Shown here: positions 6,581 to 61,930 of the stretch, piece by piece | Layout of the letters: each line of letters begins with the position of its first letter | Position numbering within the stretch: the first letter of the stretch is position 1 | Source of the DNA: Squalus acanthias | Taxonomy: Eukaryota | Reading direction: 5' to 3' | DNA length: 64,000 nucleotides | Assembly (NCBI GenBank): GCA_030390025.1 | Contig: JASTWF010000338.1 | Location: 1-64,000 of the forward strand | Notes under the pieces: model-generated | Database searches by the model: none | What the model saw: only the letters and a program-made list of their open reading frames with translations | What the model was told of the DNA's origin: nothing | Position numbers and translations under genes: made by a program

Positions 6581-7777
6581 TCACTTGTGAGATCGCTGGT
6601 GTGTCAGCAGGTGGGAAGCCTGAGTGAAGCCCTTCCCACACTCAGAGCAGAGGAACGGTCTCTCTCCGGTGTGAACTCGCTGGTGTCTCAGCAGGTGGGA
6701 TGAACAAGTGAATCCCTTCCCACACTCGGAGCAGGTGAACGGCCTCTCCCCGGTGTGAACTCGCTGGTGTTTCAGCAGATCCTTTATGCTTTTAAATTTC
6801 TTCTCACAGTCAGGACATTTAAAAGGTCTATCAGTGTGAACTCGCTGGTGTGTCAGCAGGTTTGATGACTGAGTGAATCCCTTCCCACACTCAGAGCAGG
6901 TGAAATGCCTCTCCCCAGTGTGAACTCGCTGGTGTCTCAGCAGATCCTTTTTGCTTTTAAATTTCTTCTCACAGTCAGAACATTTAAAAGGTCTATTAGT
7001 GTGAACTCGCTGGTGTGTCAGCAGGTTTGATGTCTGAGTGAATCCCTTCCCACACACGGAGCAGGTGAACGGCCTCTCCCCAGTGTGAACTCGCTGGTGT
7101 GTGAGCAGGTTGGATAAACACCTGAATCTCTTCCCACACTCAGAGCAGGAGAACGGTCTCTCCCCAGTGTGAACTCGCTGGTGTTTCAGAAGGTCGGATG
7201 AACACGTGAATCCCTTCCCACACTCAGAGCAGGTGAACGGCCTCTCCCCAGTGTGAACTCGCTGATGTGTCAGCAGGTGCTGTTTGCTTTTAAATCTCTT
7301 CTCACAGTCAGAACATTTAAAAGGTCTATCATCAGTGTGAACTCGCTGGTGTGTCAGCAGGTTGGATGACTGAGTGAATCCCTTCCCACACTCAGAGCAG
7401 GTGAATGGTCTCTCTCCAGTGTGAACTCGCTGGTGTTTCAGCAGGTGGGATGACTGAGTGAATCCCTTCCCACACTCGGAGCAGGTGAATGGCCTCTCCC
7501 CAGTGTGAACTCGCTGGTGTGTCAGCAGGTGATGTTTGCTTTTAAATCTCTTCTCACAGTCAGAACATTTAAAAGGTCTATCAGTATGAACTCGCTGGTG
7601 TGTCAGCAGGTGGGATGACTGAGTGAAACTCTTCCCACACTCGGAGCAGGTGAATGGCCTCTTCCTGGTGTGACTGCGCTTGTGTCTTGACAGGCCAGAG
7701 GATCGGCTGAAGCCTCGTCCACACACAGAACACATGTACGGTTTCTCCCCGCTCTGAATGGTGCTTTCTGCTTCCAT
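6581..7777 (-). CDS. C2H2 zinc-finger protein, 14 tandem fingers, no KRAB/SCAN (ZNF unit A, intact, ~398 aa)
   Basis: 14 CxxC-x12-HxxxH repeats with TGERPF linkers; splice acceptor ttttgcAG at 7872-7873; first in-exon ATG (MEAES) at 7777. Confidence 0.9.
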   Translation of the reverse strand: MEAESTIQSGEKPYMCSVCGRGFSRSSGLSRHKRSHTRKRPFTCSECGKSFTQSSHLLTHQRVHTDRPFKCSDCEKRFKSKHHLLTHQRVHTGERPFTCSECGKGFTQSSHLLKHQRVHTGERPFTCSECGKGFTQSSNLLTHQRVHTDDRPFKCSDCEKRFKSKQHLLTHQRVHTGERPFTCSECGKGFTCSSDLLKHQRVHTGERPFSCSECGKRFRCLSNLLTHQRVHTGERPFTCSVCGKGFTQTSNLLTHQRVHTNRPFKCSDCEKKFKSKKDLLRHQRVHTGERHFTCSECGKGFTQSSNLLTHQRVHTDRPFKCPDCEKKFKSIKDLLKHQRVHTGERPFTCSECGKGFTCSSHLLRHQRVHTGERPFLCSECGKGFTQASHLLTHQRSHK

Positions 7778-17805: not shown

Positions 17806-18501
17806 TCAACTTTTGTGAACTCGCTGGTGTGTCAGCAGGCTGGATGAACGAGAGAATCGCTTCCCACACTCGGAGCAGGTGAACAGCCTCTCCCCAGTGT
17901 GAACTCGCTGGTGTGTCAGCAGGTGGGATGAACGAGAGAATCGCTTCCCACACTCGGAGCAGGTGAACAGCCTCTCCCCAGTGTGAACTCGCTGGTGTGT
18001 CAGCAGGTGGGATGAATGAGAGAATCCCTTCCCGCACTCAGAGCAGGTGAATGGCCTCTCCCCAGTGTGAGTGCGATGATGAATTTCCAGCTCAGACGGG
18101 TAACTGAATCCCTTCCCACAGTCCCCACATTTCCACGGTTTCTCCATGGTGCGGGTGTCCTCGTGTCTCTCCAGGTTGGATGATCAGTTGAAACCTCGTC
18201 CACACACAGAACACGTGTACGGTTTCTCCCCGCTGTGAACGGTGCGATGTTTTTCAGGCTGTGTAACTGGTTGAAGCTCTTTCCACAGTCAGTGCACTGG
18301 AACACTCTCACTCGGGTGTGTGTGTCTCGGTGCTTTTCCAGTCACACTTATGTTTGAAATCTTTTCCCACAGACAAACATTTCTCCTTCCACATTCAAAG
18401 GCTGATGATATTCAGGTCCTGATGAATCGAGTGACGCTGTCAGATCTTGACGCGATGTTTGGTTTGAGTTTCCCTTCTTCAAATTCTCCCCTTCTAAAAC
18501 C
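17806..18501 (-). pseudogene. ZNF unit B: C2H2 exon, frameshifted upstream; open 4-finger ORF 17806-18147
   Basis: 1-nt deletion in A-run at ~18250 relative to unit C; normal 3' UTR replaced by EBLG-adjacent sequence. Confidence 0.8.
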
Positions 18502-18702: not shown

Positions 18703-18985
18703 AACTCTGGCTGGGTTCAGTTCTACACTCACTGGTTCCCCTCCCTCTCCTCCCCTGAAGGTGCTGACTCTGGCTGGGTTCAGTTCTACACTCACTGGTT
18801 CCCCTCCCTCTCCTCCCCTGAAGGTGCTGACTCTGGCTGGGTTCAGTTCTACACTCACTGGTTCCCCTCCCTCTCCTCCCCTGAAGGTGCTGACTCTGGC
18901 TGGGTTCAGTTCTACACTCACTGGTTCCCCTCCCTCTCCTCCCCTGAAGGTGCTGACTCTGGCTGGGTTCAGTTCTGCACTCACT
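18703..18985. repeat. 63-bp minisatellite in ZNF-B intron 1 (~4.5 copies)
   Basis: Unit ctgaaggtgctgactctggctgggttcagttctacactcactggttcccctccctctcctccc. Confidence 0.95.
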
Positions 18986-20704: not shown

Positions 20705-23690
20705 TAGAAACATAGAAGATAGGAGCAGGAGTAGGACATTCGGCCCCTCGAGCCTGTTCCGCCATTTAATGAGATCATGGCTGATCATCCAAATTCAGTA
20801 CCCTGTCCCTGCTTTCTCCCCATATCCCTTGATCCCTTTAGCCTTAAGAAATATATTTAACTCCTTCTTGAATATATTTGATGAATTAGCCTCAACTGCC
20901 TTGTGTGGTAGAGAATTCCACAGGTTCACCACTCTCTGGGTGAAGTAATTCCTCCTCATCTCAGTCCTAAATGGCTTACCCCTTATCCTTAGACTGTGAC
21001 CCCTGGTTCTGGACTCCCCCGCCATCGAGAACATCCTTCCTGCATCTAGTCTGTCTAGTCCTGTTAGAATTTTATAAGTTTCAATGAGATCCCCTCTCAT
21101 TCTTCTAAACTCTAGCGAATACAAGCCCAATCGACCCAATCTCTCTTCATACGTCATTCCTGCCATCCCAGGTATCAGTCTGGTGAATCTTCGCTGCACT
21201 CCCTCCATGGCAAGAACATCCTTCCTCAGATAAGGCGACCAAAACTGCACACAATACTCAAGGTGTGGTCTCACCAAGGCCCTGTACAACTGCAGCAAGA
21301 CATCTTTGCTCCTGTACTCGAATCCTCTCGCTATGAAGGCCAACATACCATTTGCCTTCTGAACCGCCTGCTGCACCTGCATGCTTACCTTCAATGACTG
21401 GTGCCCAAGGACACCCAGGTCTCGTTGCACTTCCCCTTTTCCCAATCTATTGCCGTTCAGATAATAATCTGCCTTCCTGTTTTTGCCACCAAAGTGGATA
21501 ACCTCGCATTTATCCACATTATACTGCATCTGCCATGCATCTGCCCAATCACCCAACCTGTCCAAATCATACTGGAGTTTCTCTGCATCCTCCTCACAGC
21601 ACACACGCCAACCCAGCTTTGTGTCGTCTGCAAACTTGGAGATATTACATCTAGTTCCCTCGTCTAGATCATTAATATATATTGTGAATAACTGGGGTCC
21701 TAGCACCGATCCCTGCGGTACCCCACTAGTCACTGCCTGCCACTCGGAAAAAGACCCGTTTATTCCAACTCTTTGCTTCCTGTCTGCCAACCAGTTCTCT
21801 ATCCAAGTCAGTACCTTACCCTCAATCCCATGTGCTTTAACTTTGCACGCTAATCTCTTATGCGGGACCTTATCAAAAGTCTTCTGAAAGTCCAAATATG
21901 CCACATCCACTGGTTCTCCCTTATCTTTTCTACCAGTCACATCCTCAAAAAATTCCAGTAGATTACTCAAGCATGATTTACCTTTTGTAAATCCATGTTG
22001 ACTTTGTCCGATCCTGTCACTGTTTTCCAAGTGCTCAGCTATTACATCTTTTATAATGGACTCTAACATTTTCCCTACTACCGATGTCAGGTCTATTATT
22101 CCCCGTTTTCTCTCTACCACCTTTTTTAAATAGTGGAGTTACATTAGCTACCCTCCAATCCATGGGAACTGTTCCAGAGTCTATAGAATTTTGGAAGATG
22201 ACCAGCAATGCATCTACTATTTCTAGGGCCACTCCCTTAAGTACCCTAGGATGTAGATTATCAGACCCTGGGGATTTATCGGTCTTCAATCCCATCAATT
22301 TGCCTAACACCATTTCCCTACAAATACTGATTTAATTCAGTTCCTCCCTCTCATTAGATCCTATGTTCCCCGACATCTCTGGGAGGTTATTTGTGTCCTC
22401 CTTTGTGAAGACAGAACCAAAGTATGTATTTAATTGGTCTGCCATTTCTTTGTTCCCCATTATAAATTCCCCTGATTCTGACTGCAAGGGACCTACGCTT
22501 GACTTCACCAATCTTTTTCTCTTCACATATCTTTAGAAGCTTTTACAGTCAGTTTTTATGTTCCCTGAAAGCTTACTCTCATACTCTATTTTCCCCCTCT
22601 TAATTAATCTCTTTGTCCTCCTTTGCTGAATCCTAAACTGCTCCCAGTCCTCAGGTTTGCTGCTTTTTCTGGCCAATTTATATGTCCTCTCCTTGGATCT
22701 TATGCTATCCCTAATTTCCCTTGTTAGCCATGGTTGAGTAACCTTTTTTGTTTTATTTTTATGCCAAACAGGGATGAACAAATTCTGTAGTTCATCCATG
22801 CGATCTTTAAATGTTTGCCATTGCCTATCCACCATCAACCCTTTAAGTAACGTTCCCCAATCCATCCTAGCCAACTCACGCCTCATACCATCGTAGTTTC
22901 CTATATTTAAATTCAGGACCCTAGTCTCTGAGTCAACTACTTCACTCTCCATCTTAATGAAGAATTTTATGATATTATGATCGCTCCTCCCCAAGGGGCC
23001 TCGCACAACAAGATTGCTAATTAATCCTTTCTCATTACATAATAACCAGTCTAAGATGGCCTGATCTCTAGTTGGTTCCTTGTCATATTGGTCCAGGAAA
23101 CCATCCCGTATACACTCTAGGAATTCCTCCTCCACAGTATTGTTACTAATTTGGTTAGCCCAATCTATATGTAAAGTCACCCATGATAACTGCTGTGCCC
23201 TTATTGCACGCATCTCTAATTTCCCATTTAATGCCATCCCCAACCTCAGCATTTCTGTTTTGGGGTCTGTATACAACTCCCACTAACGTTTTCTGCCCCT
23301 TGGTATTTCTCAGCTCTACCCATACAGATTCCACATCATCAGAGCTAATATCCTTCCTTACTATTGTGTTAATCTCCTCTTTAACCAGCAATGCTACCCC
23401 ACCTCCTTTTCCTTTTTGCCTGTCTTTCCTGAATATTGAATACCCCTGGATGTTGAATTCCCAGCCTTGGTCACCCTGGAGCCACGTCTCCGTAATCCCA
23501 ATTATATCATATCCGTTTACATCTATTTGTGCAGCTAATTCATCCACCTTATTACGAATGTTCCTCGCATTAAGACACAAAGCCTTCAGGCTTTTTTTAA
23601 ACACTCTTAGACCTTTTAGAATTATTATTTACTGTGATCATGTTTGATTTACACCCTTGATTTCTCTGACTGCCACTTTTGCTTTTCATA
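20705..23690 (-). mobile_element. CR1 LINE, ORF2 (APE + RT), frameshifted
   Basis: ORFs 23155-23604, 22533-23276, 20795-22120; 3' tail at 20705. Confidence 0.95.
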
Positions 23691-24095
23691 GCTATTTCAT
23701 AGTTAGGTTTCTAAATTTCCAAACCCAGTTTGTCATGTTTTAATAAGGCCAGAATTCTTTCATAAGATAGTGTATTTTTCTGAATAGATTATAGGGCTTT
23801 TTCCGTCACACCCCACTCTTGACCAAAAAATGAGCTCGAGCATCAGGCCAGAGTTTGGTCAATGTTACAAATAAGGTTACAATAGTACATTAATTTCACG
23901 AGATTCATAAGAGCCCAATCACGTGCTACATGAAAATTCCTTTAAGTCATCCCAGGACAATGTTTTGCCTTATTTGAAATTGAACACAAATTAAAAGATT
24001 GATAGGTACATTGTCATGCAATTAGCGAAACAACATGTACTTAGAATGTCCAATTGACAGATGTACGTTCTGTAGAGGTGAATTATTCATACGAG

Positions 24096-24443
24096 TCAAG
24101 GAGACATCATTTGGAACTGGCTGAAGCTTGACACGCTGTTCCATTGATCCAGCGTGAGGACAGGTTCTTGTTTTCGTAAAGGCCTTGCCAGAAGCTCAGT
24201 TGATTCCTTCTCCATCCGCAGTGTTTTCCTCCTTCGTTGAAGTAACTCATTGATCTTTACTTGGTTTGGTTGTGGCTTTTTGCGAATCCAATTCCTGAGG
24301 CGTTGCCAAGCATCGTGTGGAGGAGTCGGCGACACTGTCTGGCTGACCGTCGTCAGTAGTTCGATCGCATCCATTTCCTGTGTCGTGCTCCAAGCTGGGT
24401 CTTGGAAAACAGTGTATGACTGCACCTTGTATTGTTCCTCCAT
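24096..24443 (-). pseudogene. env: Truncated env N-terminus overlapping the pol end
   Basis: PVLTLDQW resembles the foamy Env leader PMTLQQW; position overlapping the pol 3' end. Confidence 0.55.
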
Positions 24444-26215
24444 TTCGGTATCCCACAGGACATCTTTTTAGATTGTCTATGGAGACAGTTTTAAGAATGT
24501 GCTTCCCATTCGGCTGATTAATATGTATTTCAACAGTTCTTTCGTTAATAACGGAACGTATTTGAACAGGTTTTTTCCACTTAGGTCTTAACCCAGGTTT
24601 TTGCTCGAACTTCTTTTCCTGTACCCATTCTCCTGCTGGGGGTTGCTATGCTTTGTTTGTCATTTTTTTCTGCCGATTTGTCTCCCTTATCCTCTGATCA
24701 ATTTGATGAATCTCCTCTGTTACTTCTTTTTAAAAATCTAACTGTTGCTGTTGGGTCAAGGAATCAGAGAGTGTCGAGGCAATAAAAGAACCATGGGTAA
24801 GCGGTGTATGCATCTCAACCCCATACATCAGATAATATGGAGTTTTAGGAGACAGTGTCCCTGATGCAGATGCGGGCACATTATTATGTGATAGCTGCAC
24901 CTCCGGAATGACGGTGGTCCATTTATTTCCCCTGATTCTCAACAGTTTGACCAATAGCTTTTTCACTTCCTGGTTTTTACGTTCCACCAGCCCCGCTGAT
25001 TGCGGATGACGTGGCGTGCTGTGCTATAACCCAATCCCCCTTTGTTCGCAGTAGTCTTTGAAGACCTTGGAGACAAAGGCTCCGCCTTTAACGGAGTGTA
25101 AGATTTTGGGTGCACCAGCTACAGTAATTATGTCAGTAATAGCATTGGCGAGTGCGTTTTCTGAAACAGTTTTTGTGGGGACCAGCCAGCAGAAGGAAGT
25201 GCATCCATCTACACAAACGAGAACATGTCTGTATCCCAAAGATGGGGGAAGTGGTCCAATGAAGTCAATAAAGAATTTTCCCATTGGCTCATCAGCTTTC
25301 AGAGGAGCCAATGCTGGTGGCTTAATTAGTGATGACTTATTGGTTAAATTGAATGGCTCACAATTTGCCACATATGTTTTACAGGCCTTAAGCATGCCTG
25401 GCCACCAATATAAGGGAGTCAATTTGCAGAATGTTGTTCTGGCACCACAATGTGCTTGACCTATGCCCTATTGAGCTTCTTTTACAAGCTGTTCTCGTTT
25501 GTGTCTCGGGGGTACCTCTCGGTTTCCCTTGGGCAACTTAACTAGCACAATACCAGTAGGGGTTTCCGAGTAAAAGTACTTTGATGGATATCCTGGTGGA
25601 TTCTCTTTTGTTGGGTCCAATAGCTGAATCAGTTCCTCATCCTGATTAGCTGCCCGTTCTGCCCTAGTGATAACACTAATATTGGCAGGCCCCTCTCAAG
25701 TTTCGCTTGTTCGTCTGGAAGACTGTTTCCTTTTGAGTGCACTGTCCCAGTGGTATGCTCGTTTACATGAATCACCTGACAATTCTGTTTCTCCATCCTC
25801 GAACGGAGAATGTCTTCCCACTATGACTTATGTTTTATGGGTTTACCCTTATGATTGGTAAAGTTTGTTTGTTCCCAGAAAACTAGATCTTGGTTATATC
25901 CACTTTTACAATAGTCACTATCCGTACAGATTAGTGTGGGTTAATAGGGTCTGCCTTTTCTAAAGCATACCGTAATGCTGCGGCTTCAGCATATCGCACT
26001 GTCTTATGGCCAAGGGGTATGGACAGTAATTCTTCTGGATAAAAAGAATAGGAATCTGGAAAAGTCCCTACTACTATCCCCATCCCAGCTGAGGATTGTT
26101 GGAATGTCCCTTTTTTAATCGTCATTGACGATCCATCAAAAATTATTACTTGGTGGTAGCAACCGTTTGAATTTCCCAATAAAAAGACTTGGCCAATTTC
26201 GACAGGGTTTGCCAT
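24247..26215 (-). pseudogene. pol: Foamy-like pol remnant (RNase H + integrase), with stops and frameshifts
   Basis: DGS..AGMGIV..SIPLG..AE..ICTDS..KPIKH (RNase H); GYPSKY, YWWP, KFFIDFIGPLPPS.GY, STP.HPQSAG.VERKN, LRPKW.KP, TVSIDNLK (IN); the second catalytic Asp is Val. Confidence 0.92.
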
Positions 26216-26459
26216 TTCGTCAGGATCTAACCTCGGTTAGGATTTAATATGAACTTTATAAGAAATTTCTAGACCTCAATGGTATATTGAGGGAGTTCTG
26301 ATTTAAGTTCTACAAGGCCTGATCAGGGACTTGTCGGCTCTAGAAACTTAAATCTGGGTCTTAGTACCACTGTCAGTAAAACACTCCTTCTATACTTAAC
26401 AATCTATGAGATGGATATAGATATAAATTTAAGTATAGGGTTCTGTATCAACTCGTTAA

Positions 26460-26477
26460 CACATACATTGGGCACCA
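26460..26477 (-). promoter_or_regulatory. Primer-binding site, tRNA-Lys1,2 type
   Basis: TGGTGCCCAATGT vs canonical TGGCGCCCAACGT, 2 nt after the LTR-terminal CA as in foamy viruses. Confidence 0.8.
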
Positions 26478-26479
26478 AC

Positions 26480-27597
26480 TGAAGGGATTTTTACTAGTCC
26501 TAGCCCCTTTAGGGCTACCCCAGATCAGGCATATTTCTCAGACGTTCACTTTCAACTAAAGTTTGAGGTAGCCGAATCCTAAAGACGCTTAATTGGGTCT
26601 AAAGGTCCGAACTATCTCTCCCTAAAGGAAAGGAACAACCTGAAAATGTTACCGTCCTCCAGATAGCACTTTTAATAAGTTTAGCTAGACTGTAACGTCC
26701 CGGATATTATGAGGGTGCGGAAAACTCCCCCAGAATTCTGTAACTCTCCACCAAAGAGTGTACAGAGATTGAGTTCGCGAGTTTTTGATACGGAAGTCTT
26801 ATGTGAGACAATTCTAAAAATATATAGATTTATTAAAGAACCGACATGCAATTTACAGTTGGTGAGTCAATTGCAACATTAACAGTTCCAAAAAGAGAAA
26901 ACATTCGATCTTTTTAACAGAGAATCTTACTTTCAAATCTTAACTTCGCTACAGTATTACAGTTCTTGAAGTTCGACAGGATATCCGCCAATATCAAATA
27001 CCTTTGATCCCCGAGGTACAAAGAGTTGGAGACTACAGAGCCACCTCTGAAGCCGAGAATCGCTTTGCCCAATTAAAGCGAGTCTGTTATCCCATTTGAG
27101 AGTTCAATATTTATACCTTTTCCAGTGGTATTTCCTTTAAGGTTTTCTACTGATGCAAGCTAATTATCTCGTCATGTTTCTGCCGACCTCTGCAACTCTT
27201 ACTGCCACCTCAGCCAGATTCGTGTCTCATCTCTAGGTGTTCTAAGTTTACCATTTAAAAAACGGTGTGACGGCAGGTGTTCCTTACTTTATGTCATCTT
27301 TACGAAGGCAGATGTTCCTTATCTTATGTGCTTCTTTACGAAGTGTAAATTAGAACACCTTATTCAGGGGGAACCATTGTTTTGTTCACAAAAGTTCAGC
27401 CTGTCGGAGCCCTTCACCTTCTGTTTCAATAAGGTTATTTATTCAGGGTCAACAACTGTCTTATCTCAATAGCCAGAATGCTTTCATAGTTAGATTTCTA
27501 AATTTCCAAACCCAGTTTGTCATGTTTTAATGAGGCCAGAATTCTTTCATAAGATAGTGTATTTTTCTGAAAAGGTTATAGGGCTTATTCCTTCACA
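26480..27597 (-). repeat. 5' LTR (1118 bp) of the foamy-like provirus
   Basis: Starts TGTGA, ends TTCA; TATAAA 27115-27110; AATAAA 26834-26829; first 116 nt repeated at 23695-23810 with 6 mismatches. Confidence 0.85.
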
Positions 27598-28822
27598 GTA
27601 AGATATCCTTGCTCCTATACTCAAATCCTCTTGCAATGAAGGCCAACATACCATTTGCCTTCCTAACTGCTTGCTGCACCTGCATGTTTGCTTTCAGTGA
27701 CTGGTGTACAAGGACACCCAGGTCCCTTTGTACATCAACATTTCCCAATCTATCACCATTTAAATAATACTCTGCCTTTCTGTTTTTCCTACCGAAGTGG
27801 ATAACTTCACATTTATCCACGTTATACTGCATCTGCCATGTATTTGCCCACTCACTCAACTTGTTCAAATCGCCTTGAAGCCTCTTTGCATCCTCCTCAC
27901 AACTCACAATCCCACCTAGTTTCGTGTCGTCAGCAAACTTGGAAATATTACATTTGGTTCCCTCATCCAAATCATTGATATATATTGTGAATAGCTGGGG
28001 CCCAAGCACTGATCCCTGTGGTACCCCACTAGTCTCCACCTGCCACCCCGAAAAAGACCCATTTATTCCTACTCTCTGTTTCCTGTCTGTTAACCAATTT
28101 TCAATCCATGCCAGTATATTACCCCCAATCCCATGTGCTTTAATTTTGCACACTAACCTCTTATGTGGGACTTTATCAAAGGCCTTCTGAAAATCCAAAT
28201 ACACCACATCCACTGGTTCTCCCTTATCTATTCTACCAGTTACATTCTCAAAAAACTCCAGTAGGTTTGTCAAACACGATTTCCCTTTCATAAATCCATG
28301 TTGACTTTGTCTAATCCCGTTGATATTTTCTAAGTGTCCTGTTATCACATCCTTTATAATGGACTCTTGCATTTTCCCTACTACTGATGTTAGGCTAAAC
28401 AGTCTGTAGTTCCCGGTTTTCTCTCTCCCTCCTTTTTTAAATAGTGGGGTTACATTTGCCACCCTCCAATCTGCAGGAACTGTTCCATAATCTATAGAAT
28501 TTTGGAAGATGACAACCAATGCATCCACTATTTCCATGGTTTCCTCTTTTAGTACTCTGGGATGCAGATTATCAGGCCCTGGGGATTTATCAGCTTTCAG
28601 TCCCATTAATTTCTCCAGCACTATTTTTTTACTAACACTAATTTCCTTTAATTCCTCCTTCTCACTAGACCCTTGGTTCCCTAGCATTTTTGGGAAGTTA
28701 TTTGTGTCCTCTTCCGTGAAGACAGAACCAAAGTATTTATTTAATTGCTCTGCCATTTCCTTGTTCCCCATTATAAATTCTCCCGTTTCTGACTGTAAGG
28801 GACCTACATTTGTCTTCACTAA
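27598..28822 (-). mobile_element. CR1 RT fragment (host of the provirus insertion; 3' part missing)
   Basis: RT motifs stop abruptly at the LTR boundary. Confidence 0.9.
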
Positions 28823-29640
28823 TATTTCTGATCGAAACATTCTATGATGAAAATATCCAAGGCCAGTTGGTTGCAAACACCAGCTGTTGCTCAGTGAAAT
28901 CTCTCTCTCTCTAATGATACCAACCACATTTTCCCCGATATCGAATGAACTAAACATGAACATCTTACAGAAGCTGAATTAACCGAGGTCCATATGCCAA
29001 CACCCCTCTCATCTTCCATTCACTTCAATTGAAAGGAAACCAACAGATTGGACCAGTCAGGATTTGAAAGATATTTACAACAGATTCTAGATGTTCTCAG
29101 AGTTGGGATCTTTCTCTATTCTGTCCACTCGAGGAGTTGGATAACAGACTTTCTCCTGTGAATATAGAGCCGGGGTATTGGGCCGTGATGTGTTCACTTG
29201 TTCATCTTGTTGACTCTAAACCTTGGCCAATTATTTGATGTGATCTGTTTACTTGTACGTATTTTTTTTAAATACACTTGCTGAGTGGATTCAAATTTAA
29301 ATTGAAAGCAGGTTTGCAGGCGTGATGCTCTATTCACACATCGAAGGTGAGAGAGATGCTGTGGGACACACGCTAAGTCCAGTAGCTGAAAGTGATTAAC
29401 AGACTGGGTTTTGTGTTTAGTGATCCCGGGCGTGTTACCGAGACCTTCCCTGGATACCAAGGCTAGGAGAGGCACTCTGGAAGGTATGGGGAGCTGGGAC
29501 TTGTCCATGAGAGTAACCGAAGGTACGAGAACTGAAATAATCTCGAGTTAGAAAGGAGAAAAGGCCCAAAAATGGAGCAGTCGGTAACAGGACATCAATT
29601 AGTCTCCACTTACCTCGGAGACTTCAAATATCGACACTGT
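28823..29640 (+). pseudogene. Candidate EBLG copy 2 (G C-terminus/TM to ~29285, plus unassigned downstream sequence)
   Basis: Near-identical to 63620-64000; RSWITDFLL at 29132-29158 followed by hydrophobic GYWAVMCSL/FILLTL. Confidence 0.7.
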
Positions 29641-29788: not shown

Positions 29789-30508
29789 TCATTTGTGAAC
29801 TCGCTGGTGTCTCAGCAGGTGGGATGACTGAGTGAATCCCTTCCCACAGTCAGACTGAGTGAATCCCTTCCCACACTCAGAGCAGGTGAATGGCCTCTCC
29901 CCGGTGTGAACTCGCTGGTGTGTCAGCTGGTCGAATGACTGAGTGAATCCCTTCCCACAGTCAGAGCAGTTGAACGGCCTCTCCCCAGTGTGAACTCGCT
30001 GGTGTCTCAGGAGGTAGGATGACCGAGTGAATCCCTTCCCACACTCAGAGCAGGTGAACGGTCTCTCCCCAGTGTGAGTGCGATGATGAATTTCCAGCTC
30101 AGACGGGGAACTGAATCCCTTCCCACAGTCCCCACATTTCCACGGTTTCTCCGTGGTGCAGGTGTCCTCGTGTCTCTCCAGGTTGGATGATCAGTTGAAG
30201 CCTCGTCCACACACAGAACACGTGTACGGTTTCTCCCCGCTGTGAATGGTGCGATGTTTTTTCAGGCTGTGTAACTATTAAAGCTCTTTCCACAGTCAGT
30301 GCACTGGAACACTCTCACTCGGGTGTGTGTGTCTCGGTGCTTTTCCAGTCACACTGATGTTGGAAATCTTTTCCCAGAGACAAGCATTTCTCCTTCCACA
30401 TTCAAAGGCCGATGATATTCAGTTCCTGATGAATCGAGTGACGCTGTCAGATCTTGATGTGATGTTTGGTTTGAGTTTCCCGTCTGCAAATCCTCCCCTT
30501 CTAATACC
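29789..30508 (-). pseudogene. ZNF unit C: C2H2 exon, probably a pseudogene
   Basis: Paralog of unit B; frameshift ~30278, MEKP ATG changed to ACG, finger deletion ~29853; 3' UTR matches unit A. Confidence 0.8.
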
Positions 30509-54270: not shown

Positions 54271-54293
54271 AGTTTATATTTATTTTAAAGATT

Positions 54294-57200
54294 CCCAGGG
54301 CAGGTACAGCACGGGTTAGATACAGAGTAAAGCTCCCTCTACACTGTCCCATCAAACACTCCCAGGGCAGGTACAGCACGGGTTAGATACAGAGTAAAGC
54401 TCCCTCTACACTGTCCCATCAAACACTCCCAGGGCAGATACAGCACGGGTAGATACAGAGTAAAGCTCCCTCTACACTGTCCCATCAAACACTCCCAGGG
54501 CAGGTACAGCACGGGTTAGATACAGAGTAAAGCTCCCTCTGCACTGTCCCATCAAACACTCCCAGGGCAGGTACAGCACGGGTTAGATACAGAGTAAAGC
54601 TCCCTCTACACTGTCCCATCAAACACTCCCAGGGCAGGTACAGCACGGGTTAGATACAGAGTAAAGCTCCCTCTACACTGTCCCATCAAACACTCCCAGG
54701 CAGGTACAGCACTGGTTAGATACAGAGTAAAGCTCCCTCTACACTGTCCCATCAAACACTCCAAGGGCAGGTACAGCACGGGTTAGATACAGAGTAAAAC
54801 TCCCTCTAAACTGTCTCATCAAACACTCCCAGGGCAGGTACAGCACGCGACAGATACAGAGTAAAGCTCCCTCCACACTGTCCCATCAAACACTCCCAGG
54901 GCAGCTACAGCATGGGTTAGATGCAGAGTAAAGCTCCCTCTGCACTGTCCCATCAAACACTCCCAGGGCAGGTACAGCACGGGTTAGATACAGAGTAAAA
55001 CTCCCTCTACACTGTCCCATGAAACACACCCAGGGCAAGTACAGCACGGGTTAGATACAGAGTAAAGCTCCCTCGACACTGTCCCATCAAACACTCCAGG
55101 GCAGGTACAGCACGGGTTAGATACAGAGTAAAGTTCCCTCTACACTGTCCCATCAAACACTCCCAGAGCAGGTACAGCACTCGTCAGATACAGAGTAAAG
55201 CTCCCTCCACACTGTCCCATCAAACACTCCAAGGGCTGGTACAGCACGGGTTAGATACAGAGTAAAACTCCCTCTACACTGTCTCATCAAACACTCCCAG
55301 GGCAGGTACAGCACGCGACAGATACAGAGTAAAGCTCCCTCAACACTGTCCCATCAAACACTCCCAGGGCAGGTACAGCACGGCTTAGATACAGAGTAAA
55401 GCTCCCTCTACACTGTCCCATCAAACACTCCCAGGGCAGCTACAGCACGGGTTAGATACAGAGTAAAGCTCCCTCTACACTGTCCCATCAAACACTCCCA
55501 GGGCAGGTACAGCACGGGTTAGATGCAGAGTAAAGCTCCCTCTACACTGTCCCATCAAACACTCCCAGGGCAGGTACAGCACGAGTCAGATACAGAGTAA
55601 AGCTCCCTCTACACTGTCACAGCAAACACTCCCAGGGCAGGTACAGCACGGGTTAGATACAGAATAAAGCTCCCTCTACACTGTCACAGCAAACACTCCC
55701 AGGACAGGTACAGCACGGGTTAGATACAGTGTAAACTCCCTCTACACTGTCCCATCAAACACTCCCAGGGCAGGTACAGCACGGGTTAGATACAGAGTAA
55801 AGCTCCCTCTACACTGTCCCATCAAACACTCCCAGGGCAGGTACAGCACGGGTTAGATAAAGAGTAAAGTTCCCTCAACACTGTCCCATCAAACACTCCC
55901 AGGGCAGGTACAGCACGGGTTAGATACAGAGTAAAGCTCCCTCTACACTGTCCCATCAAACACTCCCAGGGCAGGAACAGCATGGATTAGATACAGAGTA
56001 AAGCTCCCTCTACAGTGTCCCATCAAACACTCCTGGGGCAGGTATAGCACGGGTTCGATACAGAGTATAGCTCGCTCTATACTGTCCTAACAAACAGTCC
56101 TAGAGCAGGTACAGAACGGGTTACATACAGAGTAAAGCTCGCTCTATAGTTTCCCATCAAACACTGCCAGGGCAGGAACAGCATGGGTTAGATACAGAGT
56201 AAAGCTCCCTCTACACTGTCCCATCAAACGCTCCCACTGCAGCAACAGCATGGGTTAGATACAGAGTAAAGCTCACTCTACGCTGTCCCATCAAACACTC
56301 CTTTGAGCAGGTACAGCACGGGTTACATACAGAGTAAAGCTCGCTCTATACTGTTCCATCAAACACTCCCAGGGCAGGAACAGCATGGGTTAGATACAGA
56401 GTAAAGCTCCCTCTGAACTGTCCCAGCAAACACTCCCAGGTAGGTACAGCAATGGTAACATACAGAGTAAAGCTCGTTCGATACTTTCCCATCAAACACT
56501 CCCAGGGCAGGTACAGAACGGGTTAGATACACAGTAAAGCTCCCTCTAAACTGTCCCATCAAACACTCCCAGGGCAGGTACAGCACGGGTTAGATACAGA
56601 GTAAAGCTCCCTCTACACTGTCCAATCAAACACTCCCAGGGCAGGTACAGCATGGGTGAGATATAGAGTAAAACTCCCTCTACACTGTCCCATCAAACAC
56701 TCCCAGGGCAGCTGCAGCATGGGTTAGATACAGAGTAAAGCCCCCTCGACACTGTCCCATCAAACACTCCCAGGGCAGGTACAGCATGGGTTAGATACAG
56801 AGTAAAGCTCCCTCGACACTGTCCCATCAAACACTCCCAGGGCAGGTACAGCACGGGTTAGATACAGAGTAAAGCTCCCTCGACACTGTCCCATCAAACA
56901 CTCCCAGGGCAGGTACAGCACGGGTTAGATACAGAGTAAAGCTCACTCTACACTGTCCCGTCAAACACACCCTGGGCAGGTACAACACGGGTTAGATACA
57001 GAGTAAAGTTCCCTCTACACTGTCCCATCAAACACTAACAGGGCAGTTACAGCACGGGTTAGATACAGAGTAAAGCTCCCTCTACACTGTCCCATCAATC
57101 ACTCCCAGGGCAGGAACAGCACGGGTTAGATACAGAGTAAAGCTCCCTCTACACTGTCCCATCAAACACTCCCAGGGCAGGAACAGCATGGGTTAGATAC

Positions 57201-60200
57201 AGAGTATAGCTCGCTCTATACTGTCCAATCAAACAGTCCTCGAGCAGGTACAGCACGGGTTTCATACAGAGTAAAGCTCCCTCTCCACTGTCCAATCAAA
57301 CACTCCCAGGGCAGGTACAGCATGGGTGAGATACAGAGTAAAGCTCCCTCTACACTGTCCCATCAAACACTCCCAGGTAGGTACAGCACGGGTTAGATAC
57401 AGAGTAAAGCTCCCTCTACACTGTCCCATCAAACACTCCCAGGGCAGGTACAGCACGGGTTAGATACAGAGTAAAGCTCCCTCTACACTGTCCCATCAAA
57501 CACTCCCAGGGCAGGTACAGCATGGGTTAGATACAGAGTAAAGCTCCCTCTACACTGTCCCATCAAACACTCCCAGGGCAGGTACAGCACGGGTTAGATA
57601 CAGAGTAAAGCCCCTCTACACTGTCCCATCAAACACTCCCAGGGCAGGTACAGCATGGGTTAGATACAGAGTAAAGCTCCCTCTACACTGTCCCATCAAA
57701 CACTCCCAGGGCAGGTACAGCACGGGTTAGATACAGAGTAAAGCTCCCTCGACACTGTCCCATCAAACACTCCCAGGGCAGGTACAGCACGGGTTAGATA
57801 CAGAGTAAAGCTCCCTCTACACTGTCCCATCAAACACTCCCAGGGCAGGTACAGCATGGGTTAGATACAGAGTAAAGCTCCCTCTACACTGTCCCATCAA
57901 ACACTCCCAGGGCAGGTACAGCACGGGTTAGATACAGAGTAAAGCTCCCTCTACACTGTCCCATCAAACACTTCCAGGGCAGGTACAGCACGGGTTAGAT
58001 ACAGAGTAAAGCTCCCTCTACACTGTCCCATCAAACACTCCCAGGGCAGGTACAGCACGGGTTAGATACAGAGTAAAGCTCCCTCTACACTGTCCCATCA
58101 AACACTCCCAGGGCAGGTACAGCACGGGTTAGATACAGAGTAAAGCTCCCTCTACACTGTCCCATCAAACACTCCCAGGGCAGCTGCAGCACGGGTTAGA
58201 TACAGAGTAAAGCTCCCTCTACACTGTCCCATCAAACACTCCCAGGGCAGGTACAGCATGGGTTAGATACAGAGTAAAGCTCCCTTGACACTGTCCCATC
58301 AAACACTCCCAGGGCAGGTACAGCACGGGTTAGATACAGAGTAAAGCTCCCTCTACACTGTCCCATCAAACACTCCCAGGGCAGGTACAGCACGGGTTAG
58401 ATACAGAGTAAAGCTCCCTCTACACTGTCCCATCAAACACTCCCAGGGCAGGTACAGCATGGGTTAGATACAGAGTAAAGCTCCCTCTACACTGTCCCAT
58501 CAAACACTCCCAGGGCAGGTACAGCACGGGTTAGATACAGAGTAAAGCTCCCTCTACACTGTCCCATCAAACACTCCCAGGGCAGGTACAGCACTGGGTT
58601 AGATACAGAGTAAAGCTCCCTCTACACTGTCCCATCAAACACTCCCAGGGCAGGTACAGCACGGGTTAGATACAGAGTAAAGCTCCCTCTACACTGTCCC
58701 ATCAAACACTCCCAGGGCAGGTACAGCACGGGTTAGATACAGAGTAAAGCTCCCTCTACACTGTCCCATCAAACACTCCCAGGGCAGGTACAGCACGGGT
58801 TAGATACAGAGTAAAGTTCCCTCTGCACTGTCCCATCAAACACTAACAGGGCAGGTACAGCACGGGTAACATACAGAGTAAAGCTCGTTCGATACTTTCC
58901 CATCAAACACTCCCAGGGCAGGTACAGAACGGGTTAGATACACAGTAAAGCCCCCTCTACACTGTCCCATCAAACACTCCCAGGGCAGGAACAGCATGGG
59001 TTAGATACAGAGTAAAGCTCGCTTTATACTGTCCGATCAAACAGTCCTCGAGCAGGTACAGCACGGGTTAGCTGCAGAGTAAAGCTCCCTCTATACTGTC
59101 CCATCCAACAGTCCCAGGGCAGGTACAGCACGGGTTAGATACAGAGCAAAGCTCCCTCGACACTGTCCCGTCAAACACTCCCAGGGCAGGTACAGCACGG
59201 GTTAAATACAGAGTAAAGCTGTCTCTGCACTGTACCATCAAACACTCCCAGGGCAGGTACAGCACGGGTTAGATACAGAGTAAAGCTCCCTCTACACTGT
59301 CCCGTCAAACACTCCCTGGGCAGGTACAGCACGGGTTAGATACAGAATAAAGTTCCCTCTACACTATCCCATCAATCACTCCCAGGGCAGGTACAGCATG
59401 GGTTAGATACAGAGTAAAGCTCCCTCTACAGTGTCCCATCAAACACTCCTGAGGCAGGTACAGCAAGGGTTAGATACAGAGTGTAGCTCGCTCTATACTG
59501 TCCTATCAAACAGTCCTAGAGCAGGTACAGCATGGGTTACATACAGAGTAAAGCTCGCTCTATACTGTCCCATCAAACACTCCCAGGGCAGGAACAGCAT
59601 GGGTTAGATACAGAGTAAAGTTCCCTCTACACTGTCCCATCAAACACTGCCAGGGCAGGTACAGCATGGGTTAGATACAGCGTAAAGCTCCCTCTACACT
59701 GTCCCATCAAACACTCGCAGGGCAGGAACAGCACGGGTTAGATACAGCGTAAAGCTCCCTCTACACTGTCCCATCAAACACTCCCAGGGCAGGAACAGCA
59801 CGGGTTAGATACAGAGTAAAGTTCCCTCTACACCGTCCCTTCAAACACTCCCAGGGCAGGTACAGCACGGGTTAGATACAGCGTAAAGCTCCCTCTACAC
59901 TGTCCCATCAAACACTCCCCGGGCGGGTACAGCACGGGTAACATACAGAGTAACGCTCGTTCGGTACTTTCCCATCAAACACTCCCAGGGCAGGTACAGC
60001 ATGGGTTAGATACACAGTAAAGCCCCCTCTACACTGTCCCATCAAACACTCCCAAGGCAGGTACAGCACGGGTTAGATACAGAGTAAAGCTCCCTGTACA
60101 TTGTTGCATCAAACACTCCCAGGGCAGGTACAGCACGGGTTAGATACAGAGTAAAGCTCCCTCTACACTGTCCCATCAAACACTCCCAGAGCAGGTACAG

Positions 60201-61930
60201 CACGGGTTAGATACAGAGTAAAGCTCCCTCGAAACTGTCCCATCAAACACACCCAGGGCAGGTACAGCATGGGTTAGATGCAGAGTAAAGCCCCCTCTGC
60301 ACTGTCCCATCAAACACTCCCAGTGCAGGTACAGCAGGTGTTAGATACAGAGTAAAGCTCCCTCTGCACTGTCCCATCAAACACTCCCAGAGCAGGTACA
60401 GCAGGGGTTAGATACAGAGTAAATTTCCCTCGACACTGTCCCATCAAACACTCCCAGGGCAGGTACAGCAGGGTTTAGATACAGAGTAAAGCTCCCTCTA
60501 CACTCTCCCATCAAACACTCCCAGGGCAGGTACAGCACGGGTCAGATGCAGAGTAAAGCTCCCACTACACTGTCCCATCAAACACTCCCAGGGCAGGTAC
60601 AGCACGGGTTAGATACAGAGTAAAGCTCCCTCTGCACTTTACCATCAAACACTCCGAGGGCAGGAACAGCATGGGTTAGATACAGAGTAAAGCTCCATCT
60701 ACACTTTCCCATCAAACACTCCCAGGGCAGGTACAGCACGGGTTAGATACAGAGTAAAGCTCCCTCCACATTGTCCCATCAAACACTCCCAGGGCAGCTA
60801 CAGCACGGTTTAATTACAGAGTAAAGCCCCCTCTACACTGTCCCATCAAACACTCCCAGGGCAGGAACAGCACAGGTTAGATACAGAGTAAAGTTCCCTC
60901 TGCACTGTTTCATCAAACACTCCCAGGGCAGGTACAGCACGGGTTAGATACAGAGTAAAGCTCCCTCTACACTATCCCATCAAACACTCCCAGGACAGGT
61001 ACATCACGGGTTAGATACAGTGTAAACTCCCTCTGCACTGTCCCATCAAACACTCCCAGGGCAGGTACAGCACGGGTTAGATACAGAGTAAAGCTCCCTC
61101 CACACTGTCCCATCAAACACTCCCAGGGCATGTACAGTACAGGTTAGATACAGACTAATGTTCCCTCTGCATTGTCCCAATCAAACACTGCCAGGCTATG
61201 CACAGCACGGGTTAGATGCAGAGTAAAGCTCCCTCTACACTGTCCCATCAAACACTCCCAGGGCAGGTACAGCACGGGTTAGATGCAGAGTAAAGCTCCC
61301 TCTACACTGTCCCATCAAACACTCCCAGGGCAGGTACAGCACGGGTTAGATGCAGAGTAAAGCTCCCTCTGTACTGTCCCATCAAACACTCCTAGGGCAG
61401 GAACAGCATGGGTTAGATATAGAGTAAAGCCCCTCTACACTGTCCCATCAAACACTCCCAGTGCAGGTACAGCAGGGGTTAGATACAGAGTAAATCTCCC
61501 TCTACACTGTCCCATCAAACACTCCCAGGGCAGGTACAGCACGGGTTAGATACAGAGTAAAGCTCCCTCTACACTTTCCCATCAAACACTCCCAGGGCAG
61601 GTACAGCATGGGTTAGATACAGAGTAAAGCTCCCTCTACAGTGTCCCATCAAACACTCCTGGGGCAGGTAAAGCACTGGTTAGATACAGAGTATAGCTCG
61701 CTCTATACTGTCCTATCAAACAGTCCTAGAGCAGGTACAGCACGGGTTACATACAGAGTAAAGTTCCCTCTACACTGTCCCATCAAACACTCCCAATGCA
61801 GGTGCAGCACGGGTTAGATACAGAGTAAAGTTCCCTCTACACTGTCCCATCAAACACTCCCAATGCAGGTGCAGCACGGGTTAGATACAGAGTAAAGCTC
61901 CCTCTACACTGTCCCATCAAACACTGCCAG
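54294..61930. repeat. 67-bp satellite array, ~114 copies
   Basis: Unit cccagggcaggtacagcacgggttagatacagagtaaagctccctctacactgtcccatcaaacact. Confidence 0.98.

Follow-up and report, generated by a model that had tools for sequence, protein, structure and literature searches.

The 64,000-nucleotide stretch of Squalus acanthias DNA analysed here (contig JASTWF010000338.1 of assembly GCA_030390025.1, positions 1 to 64,000; referred to as the window) carries on its minus strand an endogenous provirus of foamy type. Comparison with related copies in the same genome leads us to consider it highly probable that this provirus is a dead, non-autonomous copy of a family which lost its env gene, spread in the germline, and was copied by fuller members by way of RNA signals that the shortened copies had kept. 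Read in its own direction, the provirus consists of a 5' long terminal repeat (LTR), two bases, a primer-binding site (PBS), 2.67 kb of internal sequence, a polypurine tract (PPT) and, cut short, a second LTR (Table 1). The original prediction, made from the letters of the window, did not contain what we now find, namely that this copy belongs to a mass-produced form that arose by double deletion from an env-less subfamily. As a locus it is an ordinary dead provirus, and the interest lies in the family, which clearly exemplifies how a foamy-type virus turned into an env-less high-copy retrotransposon with non-autonomous riders.

Four forms of the family are present in the genome, that is, (i) env-bearing copies, (ii) env-less gag-pol copies, (iii) doubly deleted copies, and (iv) solo LTRs. 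Fuller, deleted and solo-LTR copies were all recovered from the genome, a search of which with the LTR had been proposed as a check, and the presence of several hundred family proviruses shows that the supposed rarity of foamy-like endogenous retroviruses (ERVs) is wrong for this genome. Exact 19-nt junction patterns, the counts of which are lower bounds, identify 190 env-less and 14 env-bearing sites (∼14 to 1). Env was lost through two deletions of ∼1.7 and ∼1.4 kb which left 35 nt of the gene, while two other, distinct deletions fuse the start of gag to RNase H and occur at 50 and 40 sites, as compared with 84 undeleted ones. The deletion form of the window is the commonest, its own gag-RNase H junction being a mosaic of the two shared deletions between gag and the reverse transcriptase (RT) gene; what remains in this copy are 19 codons of gag and ∼92 codons of env. 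In a PBS-anchored sample, made up of the first 62 sites among 192 with an exact LTR-PBS match, 26 copies have one of the two gag-RT deletions, and none has substantial env.

The order of events that we propose starts from env-bearing gag-pol-env copies, which have LTR and pol in common with the window copy. One env-less form, defined by two shared microhomology junctions, outnumbers them, and further shared deletions took away gag, protease and RT together with part of RNase H. Because the deleted forms have two LTRs and 4-bp target site duplications (TSDs) and lie at separate sites, they were reverse-transcribed and integrated despite being unable to encode RT. Helper copies would have given Gag and Pol in trans, the helper Pol probably arising by readthrough of a single TGA, and the integrase (IN) stretch was probably required as RNA, similar to the second cis-acting sequence (CAS-II) of foamy viruses. 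The window copy itself inserted into a long interspersed nuclear element (LINE), after which it decayed and most of its 3' LTR was lost; segmental duplication or redundant assembly then multiplied it. Five further stretches contain this insertion with an identical flank at ∼99% identity and represent segmental duplicates or redundant assembly, not separate insertions.

The spumaretroviral identity of Pol, which the original prediction had read from RNase H and IN peptide motifs (all of which are indeed found), is borne out by protein matches and trees. With X placed at its four stops, the window IN matches IN of prototype foamy virus (PFV) with E=9e-77 over 410 residues, as compared with 1e-14 for Ty3 and ∼1e-6 for HIV-1, and exhibits the domains PF17921, PF00665 and PF18103. 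Longer family copies encode a protease (PF03539) and an RT with YVDD, and the best matches of family Pol are mammalian foamy Pol proteins (35–40% identity). Family Gag belongs to PF20672 (E=1e-14) and lacks a CCHC (Cys-His) box in five of five copies; its C-terminal tail, tested for Gly-Arg boxes, is basic and Gln-rich, with G and R at only 8–10% each. Foamy Env (PF03408) yields 11 matches at six loci, whose LTR and pol are, respectively, 71–91% and 86–95% identical to the window or its longer relatives. A search of the ESM Atlas with Gag gave one weak and uninformative match (0.75), comparison of Gag with the N-terminus of the foamy-like protein P0075 described below was not significant (E=0.12), and a scan of viral contigs found no relative.

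In the IN tree, built from 29 sequences and 330 columns after 12 of the 40 references had been dropped for containing too little IN, the IN of the window groups with that of five mammalian foamy viruses and with P0075, apart from all other sequences at 99.7/100 support. The RT tree, which comprises 41 sequences and 279 columns, places the family within the foamy-like clade (99/100) and outside the teleost clade (97/98). There it groups, with weak support (77/77), with the mammalian viruses, P0075, and an RT fragment from Scyliorhinus torazame (P0077, 40%), the latter not being paired with the family but nearer to the mammalian viruses (93.6/96). Family RT is also separated with 99/100 support from all non-foamy retroviral RTs of this tree, which, like the IN tree, includes no named ERV-L, snakehead retrovirus (SnRV) or lokiretrovirus sequence. 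Foamy-like RT fragments are furthermore present in bacterial metagenome assemblies (P0024, P0063; Lactococcus, Cetobacterium), where their filing under bacteria likely reflects contamination with host DNA.

What the deleted copies have kept bears on their presumed mode of copying. Among 36 PBS-anchored copies reaching the 3' tail, at least 90% of IN is present in all 36, the RT core in nine and mid-gag in 12, and a gag-anchored sample of 40 exhibits the same retention profile in its 21 complete copies. Seven shared deletions are located in gag, protease, RT and RNase H, and none in IN; under random placement all seven would spare IN with p=0.007, or with p=0.03 if the two gag-RT deletions are counted once. 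PFV is described as requiring CAS-I, which begins in R-U5 and takes in the first 200 nt of gag, CAS-II, a stretch of ∼1.8 kb in 3' pol that could be shortened to 1.2 kb, and a further element, CAS-III (PMC5035957, PMC3705302, PMC3185757); env-deficient PFV is reported to retrotranspose intracellularly (PMC3185757). The layout of the window copy resembles that of CAS-I, CAS-II and CAS-III in PFV. Since IN DNA is kept in every complete sampled copy while gag, protease, RT and env were freely lost and the active site is often substituted, it is likely, as far as comparison of sequences can tell, that the IN stretch acts in cis as an RNA signal for copying by helpers, like foamy CAS-II. The IN protein, in turn, is an unlikely reason for the retention, because one catalytic-site substitution is common to 18 of 58 independent loci (and to none of seven env-bearing ones), because three of eight shared deletions place IN out of frame with gag, and because shared variants exhibit no third-position excess (19/45 versus 85/226, p=0.62); in a weak test, purifying selection on IN was detected among them in no group.

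Several observations weigh against a role of the IN stretch in cis. In the DNA examined, 26 of the 62 sampled copies ended before the 3' tail and were excluded from the retention count; the 36 complete copies are not independent, representing by descent about seven deletion events; and the six deletions of the gag-anchored sample alone give p=0.07. Moreover, a shared 111-nt deletion in RNase H (14 copies) lies within the last 1.8 kb of pol, and the kept stretch (∼1.67 kb plus the 3' tail) is therefore not identical to PFV CAS-II. Five of the eight shared deletions are in frame, a mild excess which possibly reflects selection on translation or RNA stability, and no second match to the 3' PPT within two mismatches, and no perfect central PPT copy, was found; a shorter conserved purine run is present in the IN core. 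It may thus be asked whether, in the same non-autonomous foamy-type family, the IN stretch has survived by chance or through a few master copies without being needed in cis. The small number of shared deletions (seven to eight), p-values of 0.03–0.07 under cautious counts, and a star-like copy tree with short internal branches would all agree with such a history, but we consider it unlikely in view of the contrast between IN, kept in 36 of 36 copies, and RT, kept in 9 of 36. Moreover, at least four different shared deletions have an end point no more than ∼110 nt from where RNase H begins, and deletions into the 3' LTR exist in single copies with none seen to be shared. Retention of the deleted form for the sake of a useful fusion protein, composed of the Gag start, RNase H and IN and acting in cis, is largely refuted and in our estimate quite improbable: both gag-RT junctions are in frame in 17 of 17 copies tested as well as in the window, and the stops in IN are mostly private, but these points are opposed by the catalytic-site substitution and lack of third-position excess described above, by a shared out-of-frame deletion in 11 copies, and by the shared RNase H deletion.

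The two remaining alternatives concern the nature of the deletions and of the element itself. A splice origin, in which the deletions are introns and the copy derives from spliced viral RNA, was rejected and retains next to no probability. An acceptor-like pyrimidine tract and AG do precede the 35-nt env piece; however, in the longer copies where a junction could be aligned, none of the three junctions has a GT donor, and microhomology of 1–5 nt is found instead. Based on these two features we infer that the env deletions arose by template switching. It is also very improbable that the element is an ERV-L, a snakehead-like element, a lokiretrovirus or a Gypsy element with foamy-like IN. Its in-frame gag-stop-pol arrangement and its lack of accessory open reading frames (ORFs) are atypical of modern foamy viruses, and the trees were built without verified ERV-L, snakehead or loki sequences; yet matches to foamy families were obtained with each of Gag, protease, RT, IN and Env, and the RT and IN splits are supported at 99/100 and 99.7/100, so that the grouping with ERV-L, snakehead-like or Gypsy elements that was to speak against the original prediction is not seen among the sequences included. 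RT and IN lie outside Metaviridae in the matches and in both trees. Seven of eight Env pieces match only PF03408 and the eighth matches nothing, whereas lokiretroviruses have been defined by an Env like PF00523 together with a Pol that is sister to those of other retroviruses (PMC7947760). Nor does the family belong with the foamy-like ERVs (FLERVs) of teleosts, considering that its RT and IN are outside the clade of ray-finned fish and that its Gag and Env exhibit foamy homology.

Expression of Pol deserves separate consideration. In the family, pol is in the same frame as gag, the junction codon being TGA in 34 of the 45 copies and a sense codon in the other 11 (five with TGC, four with TGG, two with other codons), and a hairpin is predicted behind this codon. 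No Met precedes the protease motif: in a test of four frames, the first Met lies past the motif in three and is missing from the fourth. Helpers likely made their Pol by reading through the TGA into a Gag-Pol fusion. In modern foamy viruses a separate pol mRNA is described as being produced by splicing, and PFV is reported to tolerate a Gag-Pol fusion (PMC3196705). Sense codons at the junction are common to several copies (TGC in L078, L079, L095, L098 and L110; TGG in L059, L074, L096 and L106), which suggests lineages with constitutive Gag-Pol fusion. P0075 (1687 residues) combines a 530-residue N-terminal part and a foamy-type Pol with SH3_11 in a single open frame, and might possibly represent a Gag-Pol fusion that arose naturally in basal foamy-like elements. 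No long accessory ORF (tas, bet) was found in the interval from env to the TATA box, where the longest stretch without shared stops is 228 nt; such an ORF may have been lost after endogenisation. A frame of ∼150 codons overlapping 3' gag in another frame is seen in six copies (L011, 5553–6008; L009, L015, L017, L019 and L025) and has no Pfam match.

The cis features give the lineage, which is likely one from cartilaginous fish, a defined LTR, PBS, PPT and TSD. Most of 41 genome matches span the LTR from base 1 to base 1118 (89–100% identity) and 4-bp target duplications flank two solo LTRs, so that the boundaries are real and the predicted 1118-nt LTR stands. Its TATAAA and AATAAA are each present in 32 of 34 LTR copies, whereas the median retention of 6-mers from the same half of the LTR is 71%, and a second AATAAA, in U3, is found in only seven of 34. 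The predicted Lys-type PBS (CA, two nt, TGG) is equally confirmed, its sequence CA-GT-TGG agreeing at 12 of 18 bases with host tRNA-Lys(CTT); a PBS-based pattern yielded 240 genomic sites, and all six that were examined are tRNA-Lys(CTT) genes. Read by eye, most copies match at 13–15 bases, and the env-bearing copy L061 at 17 of 18. In most copies the match to tRNA-Lys(CTT) is confined to the first 14 bases of the PBS, the remaining tail being fixed and different. The PPT is present as predicted, with a GGGTG junction, and the TSD is exact in 9 of 11 copies having both outer ends, with one mismatch in the other two. In each of the four sequencing runs, contig depth over the R-U5 half of the LTR (window 26524–26955) is far higher than over U3 or the internal part, suggesting further LTR subfamilies with a common R-U5; the LTR search yielded 5116 candidates versus 813 for the internal part. 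In one sublineage (L075, L087, L091, L094, L097, L102, L103, L105, L113 and others), a piece of ∼35 nt just 5' of gag occurs in duplicate, and in L113 up to several times. Folding of the leader is not above that of shuffled sequences (z −1.56), although it contains a hairpin with a 10-bp outer and a 6-bp inner stem (window 26438–26390), and an Rfam scan of the window gave zero matches.

The age of the insertion can be estimated within wide limits only. The count of six differences in 116 nt between the LTRs was reproduced, but the 3' LTR stub is 127 nt long rather than 116, since the 5' LTR has lost 11 nt present in other LTRs. A date is thus computable as had been proposed, its usefulness having been overstated: the 95% interval of the divergence is 1.9–10.9%, which corresponds to 52 Myr (million years; 19–109) at 0.5e-9 per site per year and to 118 Myr (44–248) at 2.2e-10, both rates being borrowed (the former is assumed in PMC10699275, the latter is from PMC4422223). 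Twelve doubly deleted copies with two LTRs exhibit 2.2–6.0% LTR divergence (22–60 or 50–137 Myr at the two rates), and five other two-LTR copies 1.3–3.6%. Sequencing runs of six organisms contain fractions of 0.28–0.52 of the sequence words, and because four runs from four of these organisms cover the whole stretch (30 of 30 bins), the family is common to related species. No RNA run was listed among those containing it. Two runs tentatively taken as RNA cover the stretch with contigs, which has no bearing on expression.

Table 1. Parts of the provirus and its insertion target, in window coordinates.
Feature	Position	Strand	Basis or remark
5' LTR, 1118 nt, TGTG...TTCA	26480–27597	−	genome-wide LTR matches; lacks 11-nt piece found in other LTRs
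TATA box TATAAA, U3/R region	27110–27115	−	in 32/34 LTR copies; putative function
Polyadenylation signal AATAAA	26829–26834	−	in 32/34 LTR copies; putative function
PBS for tRNA-Lys(CTT), CA-GT-TGG, 2 bases past LTR	26460–26477	−	12/18 bases as in host tRNA-Lys(CTT) genes
5' leader, CAS-I-like position	26216–26459	−	present in nearly all copies
gag codons 1–19, fused in frame to RNase H over ∼3.36-kb gag/protease/RT deletion	26158–26215	−	comparison with longer copies
RNase H, disrupted by one frameshift and a 22-nt deletion	25690–26157	−	PF00075 in corresponding region of L011
Foamy-type IN (NED, H2C2, core, SH3), 4 in-frame stops, catalytic residue substituted	24247–25689	−	domain matches, trees
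env start (leader peptide), overlapping IN tail, truncated by ∼1.7-kb deletion	24169–24443	−	comparison with env-bearing copies
35-nt mid-env remnant flanked by the ∼1.7-kb and ∼1.4-kb microhomology deletions	24134–24168	−	comparison with env-bearing copies
3' non-coding stretch	23821–24133	−	comparison with longer copies
PPT AAGAGTGGGG, GGGTG junction to 3' LTR	23811–23820	−	
3' LTR stub, 127 nt, fused to endonuclease part of second LINE	23684–23810	−	
Host LINE reverse-transcriptase fragment, insertion target (context)	27598–28840	−	

A likeness of the ORF at 24096–24467 to a foamy Env N-terminal motif was considered and rejected; the piece derives from mid-env. Elsewhere in the window, minus-strand C2H2 zinc-finger arrays with 84-nt repeats (6586–7732, 17814–18129 and 29853–30136) look like a duplicated zinc-finger gene cluster. 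A 67-bp satellite with 114 copies (54293–61930) is flanked by 107/108-bp repeats, and 63-bp arrays are located at 18704, 30712 and 33098.

The suggestion that the provirus may represent an undescribed lineage went too far, endogenous foamy viruses of cartilaginous fish having been published already. Wang, Chen and Cui (2023, J Virol 97:e01816-22) reportedly described true-foamy ERVs in sharks and rays that branch close to the root of the vertebrate foamy viruses, and may already have reported the features given here; our family apparently has the same tree position and likely comes from the same host class. A shark foamy-like ERV known from pol only (CmiFLERV; PMC5512871) and a catshark one (ERV-Spuma.0-Sca; PMC10699275) are likewise published. 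With the coelacanth CoeEFV and the amphibian ERV-Spuma and NviFLERV elements, as described, the family shares foamy Env and Gag domains and SH3_11, and with CoeEFV also the Lys PBS; those elements have one or two accessory ORFs, whereas none was found in the family (PMC3386198, PMC5512871, 10.1101/2020.12.18.423569). Pleurodeles RTs are on a separate branch from the family in the RT tree. Teleost FLERVs and the catshark element resemble the family in Lys PBS, GGGTG junction, 4-bp TSD and an RT in the wider foamy-like clade, but the teleost elements are described as having gag and env genes without foamy homology and extra ORFs between pol and env (PMC5210030, PMC10699275). The teleost RT (97/98) and IN clades both exclude the family.

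Modern foamy viruses (PFV and simian, bovine and feline foamy viruses) share with the family an IN with NED and SH3_11, an A9-type protease similarity, a YVDD RT (35–40%), a PF20672 Gag without Cys-His box, and a PF03408 Env overlapping the end of pol. They are further described as having a Lys1,2-type PBS, the GGGTG PPT junction and a 4-bp TSD (PMC5210030, PMC3386198), which, like a long LTR, are also found in the family. Unlike them, the family has its pol in frame behind a single TGA and without its own start codon, lacks a long accessory ORF, a perfect central PPT and WxxW in the Env leader, and has mass-amplified env-less and non-autonomous forms. Loss of env followed by a gain in copy number, with deleted riders, is known from IAP (intracisternal A particle), MusD/ETn and ERV-L elements; these belong to another retroviral clade, and the riders of the present family keep a central 3' pol stretch and not only leader and ends. 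In the literature covered, which includes few subscription journals, we found no paper on endogenous foamy viruses that deals with env-less amplification, readthrough from gag into pol, or a CAS-II-like retention.

To judge from its sequence, the window copy resembles a foamy vector genome riding on helpers, and its family a relative of Spumaretrovirinae that fails three modern features. Modern foamy viruses are set apart by separate Pol expression and by a second RNA element inside pol. An early-branching relative which combines in-frame gag-stop-pol with strict retention of the IN stretch makes it testable which of the two came first. It is tempting to speculate, with rather less than even confidence, that the family represents a basal foamy lineage with Gag-Pol readthrough and without tas and bet which nevertheless already depended on a CAS-II-like RNA element in the IN region, its env-less descendants having in effect carried out a deletion scan in nature and thereby converged on the design of engineered foamy vectors. 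If so, the central cis element would predate the separate expression of Pol that distinguishes modern foamy viruses, and would not have arisen in order to package free Pol.

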